A stretch of 64,000 bases of DNA from the NCBI RefSeq assembly GCF_056746865.1, contig NZ_CM163382.1, one strand, 5' to 3'. The notes under the pieces are model-generated. The model was not told the DNA's origin. It saw only the letters and a list, made by a program, of their open reading frames with translations, and did not search any database. How positions within the stretch are numbered: position 1 is the first letter of the stretch; every line of letters begins with the position of its first letter. The translations under genes were made by a program, and so were the position numbers. Positions 19,258 through 61,812 of the stretch are shown here, piece after piece.

Positions 19258-19935
19258 AATGCGCCTATAAGGCTCTCTTACCAGCCGCGCCCTAACAGGC
19301 GCACACGATCTGACATTTGCATCCAACTTCGTTACTTACGGCCCGTAAACGGGCTGCCCGGATAGGGAATCGATAACTGCTCTCCCATTTTATCCTCTTC
19401 AAGCTGGTGCTTTATGTAATCCTGTATCTTCGCCGTGTTCTTACCCACCGTATCGACGTAGTACCCTCTGCACCAGAACTCCCTGTTCCTGTATTTGAAT
19501 TTCAAATCACCAAACTGCTCGTAAAGCATCAGACTGCTTTTCCCTTTCAGATATCCCATAAAGCCGGATACGCTCATTTTGGGCGGGATCTCCACAAGCA
19601 TATGGATATGATCTGCACAGCATTCAGCTTCCAGAATCCGTACACTTTTCCACTCACACAGCTTTCTCAAAATACTGCCTATTGCTCTACGCTTCTCTCT
19701 GTAGAACACCTGTCTTCGGTATTTTGGCGCAAATACTATGTGATATTTACAGTTCCATCGGGTGTGCGCTAAGCTCTTTTCGTTCCCCATTGGGACCCCC
19801 TTTTGATTTCTTGTTTGACACTTGCAGTTGCCAGACCGCAAGGTGTTTTAACAAATCAAAAGGGGTTTTAATAACTGGCTTAAAGCTGAAAGCTTTCCGG
19901 AACCCCCAGCCTAGCTGGGGGTTTTCTGTGCACAA
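19258..19935 (-). mobile_element. IS200-group insertion sequence (IS200/IS605 family); boundaries approximate, about +/-40 bp
   Basis: Contains a 152-aa IS200 TnpA ORF plus upstream hairpins (cccccagcctagctggggg at 19893-19911) typical of IS200 left end; no terminal inverted repeats, as expected for this family. Confidence 0.7.
19332..19790 (-). CDS. tnpA: IS200 transposase TnpA (Y1 HUH single-strand transposase)
   Basis: 152 aa from ATG at 19790 (MGNEKSLAHTRWNCKYHIVFAPKYRR...); HIH motif and C-terminal catalytic Tyr (GYYVDTVG); near-identical to remembered Salmonella IS200 TnpA. Confidence 0.9.
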   Translation of the reverse strand: MGNEKSLAHTRWNCKYHIVFAPKYRRQVFYREKRRAIGSILRKLCEWKSVRILEAECCADHIHMLVEIPPKMSVSGFMGYLKGKSSLMLYEQFGDLKFKYRNREFWCRGYYVDTVGKNTAKIQDYIKHQLEEDKMGEQLSIPYPGSPFTGRK

Positions 19936-19985: not shown

Positions 19986-20195
19986 CCTGATGTGGCGAAA
20001 ACGCCTTATCCGCCTACAAACGCATGAAGATTCAACATGTTGCAATAGATTTTGTAGGCCTGATAAGCGTAGCGCATCAGGCATTGAGCACCTAATGCCG
20101 GATGCGTCGTGAACGCCTTATCCGGCCTACAAACGCACGAAGATTCAACATGTTGCAATAGATTTTGTAGGCCTGATGAGCGTAGCGCATCAGGC
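19986..20195. repeat. Two tandem copies of a roughly 90-bp REP-IHF-REP (RIP/BIME-like) unit downstream of exbD
   Basis: Unit gccttatccgcctacaaacgcatgaagattcaacatgttgcaatagattttgtaggcctgataagcgtagcgcatcaggca repeated with 3-4 mismatches. Confidence 0.75.
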
Positions 20196-25905: not shown

Positions 25906-26009
25906 GCTTTTTACGCCTCAAACTTTCGTTTTCGGGCATTTCGTCCAGACTTAAGTTCACAACACCTCACCGGAGCCTGCTCCGGTGAGTTCATATAAAG
26001 GAGGAACGT

Positions 26010-54675: not shown

Positions 54676-55464
54676 TTAACCTATCTGCACCGACAGCATA
54701 CTTAAACTGCCCATTTCTATACCATCGACCGGAATGGTAATTGGCTCCTGCCCATCCCACGCACCTAAGACATACAACAACGGCAGATAGTGCTCTGGCG
54801 TTGGATTCGATAACGCGCCACCTTCATGGTCGAGATAATTCACCAGAGGATGCTGCTCTACCGGCCCTTGCCACGTCAGATTCGCTTTCACATACTCATT
54901 AAACGACATCGCCCACGGATACGGTGAACTATCACCGTGCCACTTCACCGTACGCAGGTTATGCACCACGTTACCGCTGGCGACCAACATTATTCCTTCA
55001 TCCCGCAGCGCTGCCAGTTTGCGCCCCATTTCGAAATGCCAGGCGGCAGGTTTGCTACTGTCGATACTCAACTGCACCATCGGGATATCCGCTTGCGGAT
55101 ACATCTTAATCAGCACGCCCCACGAGCCGTGGTCAAAGCCCCAGGCTTCTTTATCCAGCGTCACCGGGACCGGCGCTAACAGCTCAACCAGATGCTGTGC
55201 CAGCGCAGGCGAACCCGGAGCAGGATAATGCGTGTCGTACAGCGCCTGCGGGAAGCCACCAAAGTCATGAATCGTGGGCGGCGTCTCCATCGCGGTCACT
55301 CCTGTTCCACGGGTAAACCAGTGAGCCGAAACCACCACAATCGCTTGCGGGCGTGGCAATGTCATCCCCAACTTCTGCCAGCTGCGGGTATACAAATTAT
55401 CTTCCAGCACGTTCATCGGACTACCGTGACCTAAAAACAATGCTGGCATACGTGTTGAAGACAT
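54676..55464 (-). CDS. ygiD: Extradiol ring-cleavage dioxygenase, 4,5-DOPA dioxygenase-like
   Basis: 262 aa from ATG at 55464 (MSSTRMPALFLGHGSPMN...). Confidence 0.9.
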   Translation of the reverse strand: MSSTRMPALFLGHGSPMNVLEDNLYTRSWQKLGMTLPRPQAIVVVSAHWFTRGTGVTAMETPPTIHDFGGFPQALYDTHYPAPGSPALAQHLVELLAPVPVTLDKEAWGFDHGSWGVLIKMYPQADIPMVQLSIDSSKPAAWHFEMGRKLAALRDEGIMLVASGNVVHNLRTVKWHGDSSPYPWAMSFNEYVKANLTWQGPVEQHPLVNYLDHEGGALSNPTPEHYLPLLYVLGAWDGQEPITIPVDGIEMGSLSMLSVQIG

Positions 55465-55606
55465 GATGATATCCTTAACTAAAGGTGTCATTTTGATATC
55501 CTCACAATACGCTTGTTCGGCGGAGTAAGAACCCGGATAACAATGATGATGATCATCAGTTATTTTGACGATCTGCCTGAAGGTGAAGATTTATAAGGAG
55601 TTGTCG

Positions 55607-56380
55607 ATGTCAGTACCTCTCATTCTGACCATACTGGCGGGGGCAGCCACGTTTATTGGCGCGTTTCTCGGCGTTCTCGGGCAAAAACCCTCGAACCGCT
55701 TACTGGCGTTTTCGCTAGGATTTGCGGCGGGGATCATGTTGCTCATCTCATTAATGGAAATGCTTCCTGCCGCACTAGCAGCTGAAGGAATGTCGCCTGT
55801 GTTGGGTTATGGAATGTTTATCTTCGGTCTGCTTGGCTATTTTGGCCTGGACCGCATGTTGCCACATGCGCATCCGCAGGATTTAATGCAAAAATCGGTG
55901 CAGCCGTTGCCAAAATCGATCAAGCGCACAGCCATTCTGCTCACTCTCGGCATCAGTCTGCATAACTTCCCGGAAGGGATTGCCACCTTTGTCACTGCGA
56001 GCAGCAACCTGGAGCTGGGCTTTGGCATCGCACTGGCCGTTGCGTTACACAATATTCCTGAAGGTCTGGCGGTTGCAGGCCCGGTTTACGCGGCAACGGG
56101 GTCTAAACGCACCGCGATTCTGTGGGCGGGGATTTCTGGACTGGCAGAAATTCTTGGTGGTGTGCTGGCGTGGTTAATCCTCGGTAGCATGATTTCCCCG
56201 GTGGTCATGGCGGCAATCATGGCGGCGGTTGCAGGAATTATGGTGGCGCTCTCGGTTGATGAATTAATGCCGCTCGCCAAAGAGATTGACCCTAATAATA
56301 ACCCCAGCTATGGCGTACTATGTGGAATGTCAGTGATGGGATTCAGTTTAGTGCTGCTACAAACGGCGGGAATTGGTTAA
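55607..56380 (+). CDS. zupT: ZIP-family zinc (divalent metal) transporter
   Basis: 257 aa from ATG at 55607 ([10 protein letters not shown]...). Confidence 0.95.
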
Positions 56381-56437
56381 AAACAACATCAGAAGTTGTC
56401 CAGCGCATGGACAACTTCTGCCAGCTTCACGAAAGCC

Positions 56438-56608
56438 TTATTCTACCTTTTCGGCTGTCTCTTCTCTCGTACTGTTTAAGTATTTGTTCCGCGCTTCAAG
56501 CAGTGCGTCTCTGTCCTGGCGAAACGCCCGACAATAACGTTTCAAATGCAGGAAATAACCCACCACAACCAGAGCAATCAATACAATCCAGTACCAGGCG
56601 ATAAACAT
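56438..56608 (-). CDS. Candidate small single-pass membrane protein, 56 aa from ATG (track ORF starts at upstream TTG)
   Basis: N-terminal hydrophobic helix MFIAWYWIVLIALVVVGYFL then charged tail; aagggtaaaagg precedes ATG; AT-rich upstream region. Confidence 0.45.
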   Translation of the reverse strand: MFIAWYWIVLIALVVVGYFLHLKRYCRAFRQDRDALLEARNKYLNSTREETAEKVE

Positions 56609-56802
56609 CCTTTTACCCTTAATATTTAACAATACTAAACATTTAGCGCATAAATTTCACATATCCTTTTTCGGATATATTCATATGGTCGCATAATAAC
56701 GGAACAATTATATGATTTTGATCATAATGAAAAAGAATGCCTGATATTAATGAAATTTTCTCATAGAAAGAGAAGCGGAATTAACATCTTGCATAGCAGG
56801 GA

Positions 56803-56840
56803 AAAATAAAAACCGAAGCCTGCTACAACTTCGGTTTCTT
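56803..56840 (-). terminator. Rho-independent terminator downstream of ribB
   Basis: aaccgaagcctgctacaacttcggtt hairpin with flanking A/T runs. Confidence 0.65.
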
Positions 56841-56869
56841 GATTAAGGCAGTAAATTAAGCAGCGGTTT

Positions 56870-57523
56870 TCAGCTGGCTTTACGCTCATGTGCCTGACGA
56901 TAAGCCACCAGGTCTTCAATAGTCACGAGCGCCATATTGTGTTTATTGGCAAACTCAATGCACTCTGGTGCACGCGCCATCGTGCCATCGTCATTAGTCA
57001 GCTCACACAGCACACCAGCCGGTTTAAAGCCTGCCAGCGTCATCAGATCAATAGTCGCTTCAGTATGGCCGCCACGCGTCAGTACACCACCAGCCTGAGC
57101 GCGAAGTGGGAAAACGTGGCCCGGGCGATTCAGATCAGAAGGTTTTGCGTCATCGGCAATCGCTGCGCGAACGGTCGTAATACGGTCAGCGGCAGAAACA
57201 CCGGTAGTCACACCTTCAGCCGCTTCAATGGTCACGGTAAAACCGGTGCCATAGGCGCTGGTGTTATTTTCTACCATCATTGGCAGATCAAGTTGTTTAC
57301 GGCGATCTTCAGTAATGCACAGGCAAACAATACCGCTACCGTGGCGAATGGTCAGCGCCATCTGCTCAACGGTCATGGTTTCTGCCGGGAAGATCATATC
57401 GCCTTCGTTTTCACGGTCTTCATCATCAAGCACCATTACACCGCGTCCTTCACGCAGCGCAGCCAGTGCATTTTCAACACGTTCGAAAGGCGTACCAAAA
57501 GAGGAAAGTAGCGTCTGATTCAT
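56870..57523 (-). CDS. ribB: 3,4-dihydroxy-2-butanone 4-phosphate synthase
   Basis: 217 aa. Confidence 0.95.
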
Positions 57524-57599
57524 GGTAAAAAAACCTCACTAAAATTATGGTTACCAGAATCAGGGCAGTCTTAGGAGTGGCGGCATATAGCCAAAATAA

Positions 57600-57770
57600 C
57601 GTGAGCGGGTCCATGCCCGACAGAATCGTTACTCTCTCCCATCCGGACTCTAACCGTCGGCCCCGGAATTACACCGGATCTGCTGTCCTTTGAGTTCGCA
57701 CCCAAAGCGCTCGCGGGCTTTCAACTGAGTTGATTTACCGCCGGTGGGGAATTTCGCCCCGCCCTGAGAA
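57600..57770 (-). promoter_or_regulatory. FMN riboswitch (RFN element) in the ribB leader
   Basis: Minus-strand leader contains conserved RFN segments gggcggggcgaaattccccaccggcgg ... ccgggg ... ggatgggagag upstream of ribB; boundaries approximate. Confidence 0.8.
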
Positions 57771-57896
57771 TAAGCGGATTCACTATAACGCTAATGATTA
57801 GCGCCAGCAACGCATAGCTTCACATAATTCTGGTTTATGACTTACCCTTATCGCACTACAATGGCACTCAACACCTATCAGTACAGGGAAACTACA

Positions 57897-58196
57897 ATGA
57901 TTGACCCGAAAAAAATTGAGCAAATCGCTCGCCAGGTTCACGAATCAATGCCTAAAGGAATCAGGGAGTTCGGGGAAGATGTGGAGAAAAAAATCCGCCA
58001 AACCCTACAAGCGCAACTGACGCGTCTCGATCTGGTGAGCCGCGAAGAATTCGACGTACAGACGCAAGTCCTGTTACGGACTCGTGAGAAACTGGCATTA
58101 CTGGAGCAGCGCATCAGTGAACTGGAAGCGCGCAATAATTCGGTAGCAGATCTTCAATCTCCTCCGGCTATCCCGCCTATTGATAAAGCAGAATAA
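57897..58196 (+). CDS. ubiK: Ubiquinone biosynthesis accessory factor (BMFP/YqiC coiled-coil family)
   Basis: About 99 aa from ATG at 57897 ([13 protein letters not shown]...). Confidence 0.85.
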
Positions 58197-58204
58197 AGCA
58201 ACAC

Positions 58205-58228
58205 AAAAACGGGCCAGACGGCCCGTAA
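58205..58228. terminator. Hairpin terminator between convergent ubiK and glgS
   Basis: acgggccagacggcccgt stem with T-run on minus strand. Confidence 0.6.
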
Positions 58229-58230
58229 TA

Positions 58231-58431
58231 TCAGTGTTCTAATTCAAGTTCTCTGGTTTGCATCATCTGTTGGCAATACCAGGCATAACGTGCGCAAAAC
58301 CAGGTTCTATGTTCTTCATCCATGTTACCAGTAACGGCCAGAATATCGACCGGGCGACCTTCTGCGTGCATTCTGGCAAAACTACGCGCCAGGAAATCGA
58401 AATTATTTAAAGAATTAAGACTATGATCCAT
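58231..58431 (-). CDS. glgS: Surface-composition regulator GlgS
   Basis: 66 aa from ATG at 58431 ([16 protein letters not shown]...). Confidence 0.9.
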
Positions 58432-58699
58432 AAGCACATCCTCCGGTTATCGCATACCTTTTAAGGCCATATGCTTTTTCTGATTTCAGTATTCCCCAAT
58501 CAGTGTAGTGCCTTTAAACATAACGTGCGTAAATATATTGTCCCCGATCACACTTTTTAGTGAAAAATAAAAAACCATATTAAAAGACTTTCTCTTCCAG
58601 AACTTCTCTAACATGTGTTATTATTAACAAAGATAAATGTAAGCAAGGAAACTATCCTAAAGTAAATATTGCGTCACTAAATGGACATTGGAGTGACAT

Positions 58700-59329
58700 A
58701 TGATTTTATTCGCCGACTATAACACCCCTTATCTTTTCGCTATTTCCTTTGTACTGTTGATCGGCCTTTTAGAAATTTTTGCGCTTATCTGCGGTCATAT
58801 GCTCTCCGGTGCTCTTGATGCACATCTTGACCATTATGATTCCATAACCACAGGTCATATTAGCCAGGCACTTCATTATCTCAATATCGGAAGATTGCCA
58901 GCTCTCGTCGTTCTCTGCTTACTGGCTGGTTTTTTTGGTCTTATTGGCATCCTGTTGCAGCATACCTGCATCATGGTCTGGCAATCACCACTCTCGAACC
59001 TGTTCGTGGTTCCTGTCAGTTTACTGTTTACGATTATTGCGGTGCATTATACCGGTAAAATAGTTGCGCCCTGGATTCCACGCGACCATAGTTCAGCTAT
59101 TACAGAAGAAGAATATATTGGTAGCATGGCGTTAATTACCGGACATCAAGCGACTTCAGGTAATCCCTGCGAAGGAAAACTCACCGATCAATTTGGCCAA
59201 ATACATTATTTACTACTGGAGCCTGAAGAAGGAAAAATTTTCACTAAAGGAGACAAAGTGTTAATTATTTGCCGACTTTCTGCAACGCGATATTTGGCGG
59301 AAAACAATCCCTGGCCCCAAATATTGTAA
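58700..59329 (+). CDS. yqiJ: NfeD-like inner membrane protein
   Basis: 209 aa with N-terminal TM helices and C-terminal OB-like domain. Confidence 0.85.
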
Positions 59330-59355
59330 TTTATTAATCAAAAGGAAATTTAATA

Positions 59356-61017
59356 ATGGATGATATTGTTAATTCTGTGCCCTCCTGGATGTTTACCGCA
59401 ATTATTGCCGTATGCATTCTGTTTATTATTGGAATTATTTTCGCCAGGCTCTATCGTCGCGCTTCGGCAGAGCAAGCTTTTGTTCGTACTGGTTTAGGTG
59501 GGCAAAAAGTGGTAATGAGCGGTGGCGCAATCGTGATGCCGATCTTTCATGAAATAATCCCCATCAATATGAATACCCTGAAGCTGGAAGTCAGCCGCTC
59601 AACCATTGATAGCCTGATTACGAAAGATCGTATGCGCGTCGATGTCGTGGTCGCTTTCTTTGTGCGGGTAAAACCTTCAGTTGAAGGGATTGCCACCGCC
59701 GCCCAGACGCTGGGACAACGCACCCTGTCGCCTGAAGACTTACGTATGTTGGTTGAAGATAAATTTGTCGATGCCCTCCGTGCAACAGCTGCACAAATGA
59801 CCATGCATGAGTTACAGGATACCCGCGAGAACTTCGTGCAGGGAGTACAAAATACCGTAGCTGAAGATCTGTCGAAAAACGGCCTGGAACTGGAAAGCGT
59901 TTCACTTACCAACTTTAACCAGACGTCGAAAGAACATTTCAATCCTAACAACGCCTTTGACGCCGAAGGTTTAACCAAGCTGACGCAGGAGACGGAGCGC
60001 CGTCGTCGCGAACGTAACGAAGTTGAACAGGATGTAGAAGTTGCGGTGCGTGAGAAAAACCGTGATGCGCTTTCGCGCAAGCTGGAGATTGAACAACAAG
60101 AAGCGTTTATGACGCTTGAGCAGGAGCAGCAGGTTAAAACCCGTACCGCTGAGCAGAATGCGAAAATTGCGGCTTTTGAGGCCGAGCGTCGTCGGGAAGC
60201 AGAGCAGACGCGAATTCTGGCTGAACGACAGATTCAGGAAACGGAAATCGACCGCGAACAGGCCGTCCGTTCCAGAAAAGTTGAAGCTGAACGTGAAGTT
60301 CGCATTAAAGAGATCGAACAGCAGCAGGTCACCGAAATCGCCAACCAGACGAAATCGATCGCTATTGCCGCCAAATCGGAACAGCAGTCACAAGCGGAAG
60401 CGCGTGCCAACCTTGCACTTGCAGAAGCGGTAAGCGCCCAGCAAAACGTTGAAACCACTCGCCAGACCGCAGAAGCCGATCGTGCTAAACAAGTTGCCCT
60501 AATCGCTGCCGCGCAGGACGCGGAAACCAAAGCAGTCGAACTGACCGTCCGGGCGAAAGCTGAAAAAGAAGCCGCAGAGATGCAGGCGGCGGCAATCGTT
60601 GAGTTAGCCGAAGCTACGCGTAAAAAGGGTCTGGCGGAAGCAGAAGCGCAACGTGCGCTGAACGACGCTATCAACGTACTTTCTGACGAGCAAACCAGCC
60701 TTAAATTCAAACTGGCGCTATTACAATCATTACCTGCGGTAATAGAGAAATCCGTTGAGCCGATGAAGTCCATTGACGGCATCAAGATTATTCAGGTCGA
60801 TGGATTAAACCGAGGTGGCGCTGCGGGGAATGCGGCATCAGGCAGCGTTAGTGGCGGAAACCTGGCAGAACAGGCATTGTCTGCCGCCCTTTCTTACCGC
60901 ACACAGGCACCACTGATTGACTCCTTGCTCAATGAAATCGGTGTTTCTGGCGGCTCGCTGGCGGCATTGACTTCACCCTTAACATCAACAACTCCCGTCG
61001 AAGAAAAAACAGAGTAA
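59356..61017 (+). CDS. yqiK: SPFH/band-7 (flotillin-like) membrane protein with long Ala/Glu/Arg-rich coiled coil
   Basis: 553 aa; N-terminal TM helix, SPFH domain, extended EAE/AEA-rich region. Confidence 0.9.
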   Translation: MDDIVNSVPSWMFTAIIAVCILFIIGIIFARLYRRASAEQAFVRTGLGGQKVVMSGGAIVMPIFHEIIPINMNTLKLEVSRSTIDSLITKDRMRVDVVVAFFVRVKPSVEGIATAAQTLGQRTLSPEDLRMLVEDKFVDALRATAAQMTMHELQDTRENFVQGVQNTVAEDLSKNGLELESVSLTNFNQTSKEHFNPNNAFDAEGLTKLTQETERRRRERNEVEQDVEVAVREKNRDALSRKLEIEQQEAFMTLEQEQQVKTRTAEQNAKIAAFEAERRREAEQTRILAERQIQETEIDREQAVRSRKVEAEREVRIKEIEQQQVTEIANQTKSIAIAAKSEQQSQAEARANLALAEAVSAQQNVETTRQTAEADRAKQVALIAAAQDAETKAVELTVRAKAEKEAAEMQAAAIVELAEATRKKGLAEAEAQRALNDAINVLSDEQTSLKFKLALLQSLPAVIEKSVEPMKSIDGIKIIQVDGLNRGGAAGNAASGSVSGGNLAEQALSAALSYRTQAPLIDSLLNEIGVSGGSLAALTSPLTSTTPVEEKTE

Positions 61018-61211: not shown

Positions 61212-61352
61212 GGGAAAGCCCCTCCCGAAGAAGGGGCCTTATAGAAGGAAAGGGTTATGATGAAGCTCGTCATCATACTGATTGTGTTGTTACTAGTAAG
61301 TTTCCAGGCTTATTAACAACCAATTCAGAGGGGGGAGAAATCCTCCCTTACC
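61212..61352 (-). ncRNA. sibD: Sib antisense sRNA (antitoxin), copy 1; ends approximate
   Basis: Antisense to ibs ORF; minus-strand terminator hairpin gccccttcttcgggaggggc plus T-run at about 61217-61240. Confidence 0.55.
61257..61316 (+). CDS. ibsD: Ibs type I toxin, 19 aa (MMKLVIILIVLLLVSFQAY)
   Basis: Hand-translated; hydrophobic 19-mer typical of Ibs; ggaaaggg SD-like sequence upstream. Confidence 0.7.
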   Translation: MMKLVIILIVLLLVSFQAY

Positions 61353-61588
61353 CTTGTTCCTTTACTTTAGGTTGAAAAAAAATCAGCGTCAAGAAGGTTT
61401 CTCTATCCCACATCCCTGGCCCAAAAAGCCGGGGATTTTTTATATCTGCGTTCCGCTAAAAGGTGCAAATGATCAGGCTGTTGCAGCATTTTGCGTGACG
61501 GCTCGGGGAAGGCAAAACTGCATCAGGGAAAGCATTGCGCGGGGTCTGGCGCTCATCAACAATCGGGGAGTCAGCAAGGGGCTGAAAC

Positions 61589-61729
61589 GGGAAAGCCCCT
61601 CCCGAAGAAGGGGCCTTGTATAAGGAAAGGGTTATGATGAAGCTGGTCATCATACTGATTGTGTTGTTACTCGTAAGTTTCGCAGCTTATTAACAGCCAA
61701 TCAGAGGGGGGAGAAATCCTCCCTCACCC
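61589..61729 (-). ncRNA. sibE: Sib antisense sRNA (antitoxin), copy 2; ends approximate
   Basis: Same architecture as copy 1. Confidence 0.55.
61634..61693 (+). CDS. ibsE: Ibs type I toxin, 19 aa (MMKLVIILIVLLLVSFAAY)
   Basis: Hand-translated; differs from copy 1 by Q17A. Confidence 0.7.
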   Translation: MMKLVIILIVLLLVSFAAY

Positions 61730-61812
61730 TTGTTCCTTTACTTTAGGTTGAAAAAAAAACAGCGTCAATAGGCCTGCCAGGTTCGAAGCGAGATCTGTGA
61801 ACCGCTTTCCGG

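Follow-up and report, generated by a model that had tools for sequence, protein, structure and literature searches.

The ribB leader in a 64-kb stretch of Escherichia coli chromosome: a mapped FMN riboswitch with a 252-nt leader and the SroG fragment

The window, by which is meant the whole stretch of 64,000 nt analyzed here (contig NZ_CM163382.1 of RefSeq assembly GCF_056746865.1), is E. coli chromosome, and the 1.6-kb region around ribB is 100% identical to several complete genomes. The ribB region was found in 5425 of 5426 complete E. coli genomes, at an identity of at least 99% in 4958; one copy of the region was plasmid-borne. The single genome without any ribB region may reflect an assembly problem, since ribB is an essential gene. 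The product of ribB is DHBP synthase, and the gene is flanked by its own terminator and by the divergent gene ubiK:

56870..57523, minus strand: ribB (open reading frame; PF00926, 281 bits; RefSeq annotation)
56798..56839, minus strand: intrinsic terminator of ribB, a 13-bp stem followed by a T-run (terminator scan)
57897..58196, plus strand: ubiK, divergent from ribB (RefSeq)

The longest open reading frame of ubiK starts at 57837 (119 aa), and the annotated, Pfam-matching start is at 57897 (99 aa). Directly after ubiK this strain carries glgS (window 58197-58230); K-12 has ygiL and an IS2-disrupted yqiG at that point (locus L122, 3632-5001), which are taken here as the beginning of the ygiL-yqiGHI fimbrial operon; in K-12 this operon lies between ubiK and glgS, and the window lacks it. 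The presence of ygiL-yqiGHI beside the riboswitch locus is thus a strain-specific presence/absence polymorphism. Over the ribB terminator, a resemblance to STnc240 (56801-56871, minus strand; 29.1 bits against a threshold of 55) was rejected as sub-threshold and is almost certainly a generic similarity of hairpin and U-tail. Elsewhere in the window, the whole-window Rfam scan recovered several other RNA families above their gathering scores:

61242-61392 and 61619-61768, minus strand: two tandem SIB RNA genes (RF00113; 142.5 and 150.2 bits) downstream of yqiK, antitoxin RNAs of Sib/Ibs type I toxin-antitoxin pairs
19800-19923, minus strand: STnc490, an Hfq-binding RNA (146 bits)
8300-8376, both strands, and 20057-20127, minus strand: three naRNA4 matches with a REP-like look, one of them adjoining STnc490
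25908-25971, plus strand: ES173 small RNA (99 bits against 90)

Between ubiK and ribB, the minus strand carries an FMN aptamer in sense orientation within the ribB 5′ UTR:

57627..57775, minus strand: FMN aptamer, RNA positions 1-149, helices P1-P6 (RF00050; RefSeq; alignment)

The RF00050 match runs from 57775 to 57627, scores 120.9 bits against a gathering score of 66.2 and spans model positions 1-138 of 138 without truncation, with E-values of 8.6e-29 in the surrounding 5 kb (window 55000-60000) and 1.1e-27 over the whole window; at gathering thresholds, the scan of all 64 kb returned no second FMN element. RefSeq annotation of a 100%-identical genome places a “riboswitch / FMN riboswitch” on exactly the same bases. 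A first-pass annotation made from the sequence had proposed an FMN riboswitch in the ribB leader and had named a significant match to the Rfam FMN covariance model as the check, and on both points it was right. The interval it had drawn, 57600-57770, contains the aptamer apart from the first 5 nt, cutting into the 5′ strand of P1, which starts at 57773, and overshoots the 3′ end by 27 nt. P1 pairs positions 3-10 with 141-148 (57773..57766 with 57635..57628), and the aptamer as a whole begins at the mapped transcription start and ends 104 nt upstream of the ribB AUG. The junction nucleotides of the FMN pocket (AGGGC..., ...CCGAC.GU, ...GGAUG..AGA) match the consensus in the Rfam alignment, in agreement with the conserved RFN-element segments claimed earlier for this leader, and they occupy invariant columns in an alignment of 102 aptamers. 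Two further Rfam resemblances, AdoCbl-II overlapping the aptamer (22.3 bits against 36.5) and snoZ105, were sub-threshold and were dismissed.

For the comparative analysis, a degenerate pattern of the aptamer core was used to collect 120 loci from species-representative genomes of many phyla, with ribB directly downstream in 46 of them. The 102 distinct aptamers were aligned with MAFFT, which is blind to structure, and their pairing was scored on the Rfam structure, projected onto the alignment by way of the E. coli row. Base pairs were formed in 93.8% of cells, vs. 39-55% in controls slid by 1-3 columns, and compensatory changes were found at 14 pairs (270 cells changed on both sides), values that none of 500 shuffles reached. 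Covariation was seen in P1, P5, and P6; P2 and P3 are uninformative, since the search pattern had fixed them, and the third pair of P4 was misaligned by MAFFT. The reading that the match arose by chance or is a decayed, functionless relic is already refuted by the E-value of 8.6e-29 over the full-length model, by the near-universal retention of the locus among complete E. coli genomes, and by an architecture that is conserved across orders together with the covariation of the aptamer. Nearest-neighbor folding never placed P1 or the aptamer fold in the minimum free energy structure, and enforcing the aptamer cost 9-21 kcal/mol, as expected because tertiary and ligand energies lie outside the two-dimensional energy model, so that computation did not reproduce the ligand-bound OFF state; thermodynamic folding was thus used only to order the competing helices of the expression platform and not as evidence for or against the aptamer. 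On the identical K-12 sequence, FMN binding has been measured with a Kswitch of 57-206 nM, and FMN protects P1 and, against RNase H, positions 215-227 (PMC11571811).

In five of the collected loci (L006, L041, L087, L096, and L106), the P4 loop contains an insertion of ∼50-60 nt (aptamer-alignment columns ∼119-171). The hosts are four Rhodobacteraceae and one unverified “Flavobacteriia” MAG, and the insertion has a conserved core, CCAAAAGTGGGAACCGGTTTTGG, with a long inverted repeat on either side; it may be an added domain that is conserved, or else an inserted element.

The extent of the leader is set by its promoter and transcription start:

57782..57810, minus strand: sigma-70 promoter of ribB and sroG (direct reading; conservation; 5′-RACE)
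57775, minus strand: transcription start +1 (G), equal to K-12 coordinate 3184718 (directed 5′-RACE)

The promoter consists of a -35 hexamer TTGCTG (57810..57805), a 17-nt spacer, a -10 hexamer TATAGT (57787..57782), and a 6-nt discriminator, and both hexamers and their register are kept in 11 other Enterobacterales. It was placed through 5′-RACE data and conservation; a simple consensus promoter scan left it unflagged because the -35 hexamer fits TTGACA at only three of six positions. Directed 5′-RACE positioned the ribB start at -252, and the -10 box listed for that start is tagcGTTATAGTgaat / GTTATAGT (Mendoza-Vargas 2009; PMC2760140 supplement), which corresponds to the TATAGT at 57787..57782. 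When +1 is set at 57775, the residues G149, C175, G176, and U181 of the published leader numbering (Eschbach et al. 2024; PMC11571811), in which the AUG lies near 247-249, all fall on the correct letters, and the AUG occupies 253-255. The ribB leader is therefore 252 nt long (57775..57524), not the ∼310 nt first assigned to it, and the surplus of ∼60 nt carries the promoter. The interval from which the longer figure came, 57524-57836, ends just short of a spurious upstream ATG in the ubiK frame (57837), which probably accounts for it.

From -27 through +36 of the coding sequence, the leader is base-for-base the same as in E. coli K-12, and experiments on K-12 consequently apply to it directly. 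One base of the promoter spacer differs (window 57804 is G, K-12 has C); neither this base nor the fimbrial operon touches the riboswitch. The K-12 RefSeq record annotates neither sroG nor a riboswitch at the locus. A leader peptide was considered and rejected: open reading frames of 46 and 44 aa start at AUG162 or a UUG, and neither start is conserved (alignment A3). AUG162 lies in the loop of a hairpin in the spacer.

The same leader is the source of the small RNA SroG (PMC7456131, PMC2760140), whose ends were taken here from the Term-seq and 5′-RACE supplements:

57623..57775, minus strand: SroG, leader fragment from 1 to about 153, the aptamer plus 4 nt (Term-seq 3′ end; 5′-RACE start)

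The Term-seq 3′ end lies at K-12 coordinate 3184566, -100 from the open reading frame and hence +153 (Adams et al. 2021; PMC7815308 supplement 3), and through sequence identity to K-12 it transfers to window 57623, 4 nt beyond the base of P1. With 1.35 million reads it is among the highest in the listed part of that table, where it is tagged “riboswitch” and is given a Rho score of 1.80 (bicyclomycin; significant Rho termination region “Yes”) and an intrinsic-terminator score of 1.13, under the threshold of 3 (PMC7815308). The statement in the first-pass annotation that fragments of this leader accumulate as a small RNA accordingly agrees with the literature, the RNA being SroG and its abundant end lying just past P1. 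The +153 end would be produced by 3′-5′ trimming of Rho-terminated transcripts back to the stable aptamer, and direct processing may be an alternative source. Two lesser K-12 ends are also given in the listed part of the table, one at RNA +41 (57735, minus strand), inside P3 of the aptamer, with 76,112 reads, and one at +269 (57507, minus strand), 8 nt beyond the AUG-sequestering stem described below, with 39,467 reads.

Downstream of the aptamer, the alignment of 16 gamma-proteobacterial ribB leaders shows a spacer (∼150-209) that diverges freely and three blocks that do not vary between E. coli and Vibrio, UUAUUCUCAGGGC (3-15), GCCCUGAUUCUGGU (210-223), and ACCAUGAAUCAG (250-261). The parts of the expression platform are as follows:

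57593..57601, minus strand: 3′ strand of the published anti*-P1 stem, 175-183, CGUUAUUUU, with its partner at 141-149 (PMC11571811; complementarity in sequence)
57601 and 57595, minus strand: pause sites C175 and U181 (PMC11571811)
57551..57610, minus strand: candidate rut region, C-rich and G-poor, 166-225 (composition scan)
57560..57566, minus strand: 3′ strand of the anti-P1 or anti-sequestor helix, GCCCUGA, 210-216 (complementarity, conservation, folding)
57515..57563, minus strand: sequestering stem-loop, 213-225 with 248-261 (folds; conservation; published RNase H protection)
57529, minus strand: pause site 247

The GCCCUGA at 210-216 is the exact complement of UCAGGGC at 9-15 (57767..57761), which covers the end of the 5′ strand of P1 and the J1/2 core. 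The exact 7-mer follows the aptamer in 41 of 119 loci, against ∼3 expected by our own estimate (400 positions per locus / 4^7), and in 30 of the 46 that have ribB downstream. In nascent transcripts of 235-247 nt, the 9-15/210-216 helix had a pairing probability of 0.97; it replaced a first guess at the anti-sequestor, 3-7 with 221-225, for which the probability was at most 0.08. The sequestering stem has a predicted energy of -15.9 kcal/mol and a probability of 0.83 in a 290-nt RNA, and it pairs A253 and G255 of the AUG (253-255; 57523..57521) and encloses the Shine-Dalgarno sequence GAGG (239-242; 57537..57534). Of 24 diverged ribB leaders, 23 have an equivalent hairpin that pairs the AUG (median z against shuffles, -3.7), and Desulfobacterota carry compensatory variants of the stem, with CUGAUUCAUGA...UCAUGAAUCAG replacing CUGAUUCUGGUA...UACCAUGAAUCAG. 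Among close relatives the anti-P1 and sequestering strands are invariant, so that covariation in this part comes from distant taxa only. Taken with the alignment of the aptamers, these comparative tests support the aptamer, the anti-P1 pairing, and the sequestering stem.

Because both use 213-216, the anti-sequestor and the sequestering stem exclude each other. For the full-length RNA, the two-dimensional model eventually favors the sequestering stem whether or not ligand is present, so that the ON state would have to be held by kinetics or ribosome loading. The anti*-P1 stem is present in the minimum free energy structure of the full leader and has a probability of 0.69 in nascent transcripts of 235-247 nt. 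In 12 Enterobacterales it was paired in 94% of cells with one compensatory change only, and the duplex energy of the 3′ strand of P1 with real vs. shuffled spacers gave a median z of -0.45 in 24 leaders, which is not significant; mutants of this stem have been reported (PMC11571811). Experimentally, stalling at 247 weakens FMN binding about 330-fold relative to stalling at 175, the 247 pause bounds the binding window, and in the ON state each end of the aptamer is held in a helix (PMC11571811). The computed order of nascent folding matches this difference in FMN binding and the engagement of both aptamer ends.

The first three codons of ribB, AUG AAU CAG (57515-57523, minus strand), are conserved as nucleotides, even at synonymous positions, from E. 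coli as far as Desulfobacterota (loci L002, L003, L008, L019, L023, L046, L054, L058, L072, L103, and L104). These codons make up the 3′ side of the sequestering stem, and the N-terminal coding sequence of ribB thus appears to be under constraint from RNA structure.

The way in which transcription is curtailed separates this leader from the FMN riboswitch of Bacillus ribD. A Bacillus ribD type of attenuation, in which an intrinsic terminator alternates with an antiterminator, might be entertained for a leader that shares the aptamer family and has a U-rich run (177-183) after a potential helix of 141-149 with 175-183. That helix, however, belongs to the state without ligand, whereas an OFF switch would need the opposite polarity; the terminator scan of the minus strand from 57626 to 57524 was empty, with no hairpin and U-tract between the aptamer and the AUG; and the 3′ end of the leader scores below the intrinsic-terminator threshold in the listed Term-seq data (PMC7815308). 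Attenuation of this kind is accordingly held to be very improbable. The evidence instead points to Rho. Positions 166-225 have a C/G ratio of 1.73, vs. 0.46-0.8 in the 3′ half of the aptamer, and rut sites have been placed in the expression platform, where they are exposed upon ligand binding (PMC5499598, PMC10085680, PMC11571811); the exact position of the rut site within the platform is suggested here by composition. Control by Rho has been seen in vivo, with a ChIP termination score of 3.1 that was abolished in rho R66S (PMC5499598), and ligand-gated Rho termination was obtained in a purified single-molecule system (PMC10085680).

Whether Rho acts directly is the point on which a purely translational switch would differ, in which FMN only occludes the ribosome-binding site and the fall in mRNA and the effect of Rho follow indirectly, as proposed for thiM. 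The sequestering stem does pair the AUG and is deeply conserved, and indirect Rho control of this kind has been shown for thiM (PMC5499598). Nevertheless, ribB has been classed with mgtA as under direct Rho control via rut exposure, and ligand-gated termination by Rho has been reproduced in purified transcription systems without ribosomes (PMC5499598, PMC10085680); in addition, the dominant in vivo 3′ end in the listed Term-seq data lies in the 5′ UTR, inside a significant Rho-termination region (PMC7815308). Because ligand-dependent Rho termination free of ribosomes has already been reported, the purely translational account survives only as a claim about relative contributions, and it is considered unlikely.

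The abundance of SroG raises the different possibility that the element is mainly the gene of a trans-acting RNA, working by pairing with mRNAs or by titrating FMN, with control of ribB in cis being secondary. The 1-153 fragment is extremely abundant by Term-seq read count in the listed data, a stable RNA has been detected in both E. coli and Yersinia, and in vitro gel shifts had SroG binding eight of nine predicted mRNAs, one of them weakly, with shifts reported for cdsA, cysJ, yfbR, yncD, mepM, potA, and pgl (PMC6172242). Those shifts, however, used a high RNA concentration, which makes them weak evidence; no in vivo target or phenotype has been reported, and the function of SroG was still called unknown in 2020 (PMC7456131); and the outcome of sroG CRISPRi is explained by lost transcription of ribB (PMC6242692). 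Conservation falls on the FMN aptamer and the cis-acting platform, which together account for every conserved base, and not on a seed region. A primarily trans-acting element is therefore unlikely, and it is similarly improbable that SroG 1-153 has a function of its own, be it as a trans base-pairing RNA or as an FMN-binding buffer that tracks flavin status.

The element is thus best read, with a probability of about 0.95, as the FMN riboswitch of E. coli ribB, which turns the gene off in cis in two ways, by blocking translation and by Rho-dependent termination. That ribB is under cis-acting FMN control, as the first-pass annotation held, has been demonstrated for K-12, whose leader is identical, at the level of both translation and Rho-dependent termination (PMC11571811, PMC5499598, PMC10085680). 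Transcription starts at 57775, and the first 149 nt form the FMN aptamer with its six helices. In the mechanism proposed, binding of FMN before RNA polymerase has reached about +175 to +247 locks P1 (3-10 with 141-148), leaving 213-225 free to pair with 248-261, so that the AUG is buried, the Shine-Dalgarno sequence enclosed, and translation blocked; the C-rich spacer at the same time stays unpaired, allowing Rho to load and to stop transcription inside the leader or shortly beyond it. When there is no FMN, the anti*-P1 strand (175-183) would capture the 3′ strand of P1, and UCAGGGC (9-15) would pair with GCCCUGA (210-216), disrupting the aptamer and holding back the 5′ strand of the sequestering stem; once this anti-sequestor has formed, ribosomes could load and ribB could be made. 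Terminated transcripts would be trimmed to the stable aptamer and accumulate as the SroG of ∼153 nt. The aptamer, the complementarities, their conservation, and the order of folding come from the present analysis; work by others on the identical K-12 sequence established that FMN binds and the structure switches, that control depends on Rho, and where the pause sites and the two transcript ends lie.

Compared with known systems, this is the same element as the FMN riboswitch and sroG of E. coli K-12, with which it shares the transcription start, the aptamer, the anti*-P1 stem, the sequestering stem, and the pause positions; earlier studies of the K-12 switch include Winkler 2002, Hollands 2012, and Pedrolli 2015. 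The riboswitch of Bacillus subtilis ribD (ribDG-E-AB-H) has the same aptamer family, ligand, and co-transcriptional kinetic OFF logic, but it acts through an intrinsic terminator and antiterminator, whereas E. coli ribB uses sequestration of the AUG and ribosome-binding site together with Rho, with no intrinsic terminator. The Mg2+ leader of Salmonella mgtA and the E. coli thiM, thiC, and lysC leaders likewise show ligand-dependent Rho termination in the leader or early open reading frame and regulatory pausing near the start codon (PMC5499598, PMC5234074), although their ligands and aptamers differ from those of ribB. In thiM the action of Rho is indirect, via lost translation, whereas in ribB the rut site is reportedly exposed directly.

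The ribB FMN riboswitch and SroG at this locus are already known and nothing about them is new, so that the element matters as annotation and not as a discovery; what is useful are the exact coordinates of each functional part, the placement of SroG at 57775..57623, and the correction of the leader to 252 nt. Support from the comparative work for the published model is modest and consists in the recurrence, from Enterobacterales to Desulfobacterota, of the anti-P1 7-mer and of the hairpin that sequesters the AUG. The ribB FMN riboswitch is a target of ribocil and of roseoflavin-type antibacterials and a model for co-transcriptional ligand sensing coupled to Rho, and in E. coli it explains how riboflavin synthesis is matched to flavin supply.
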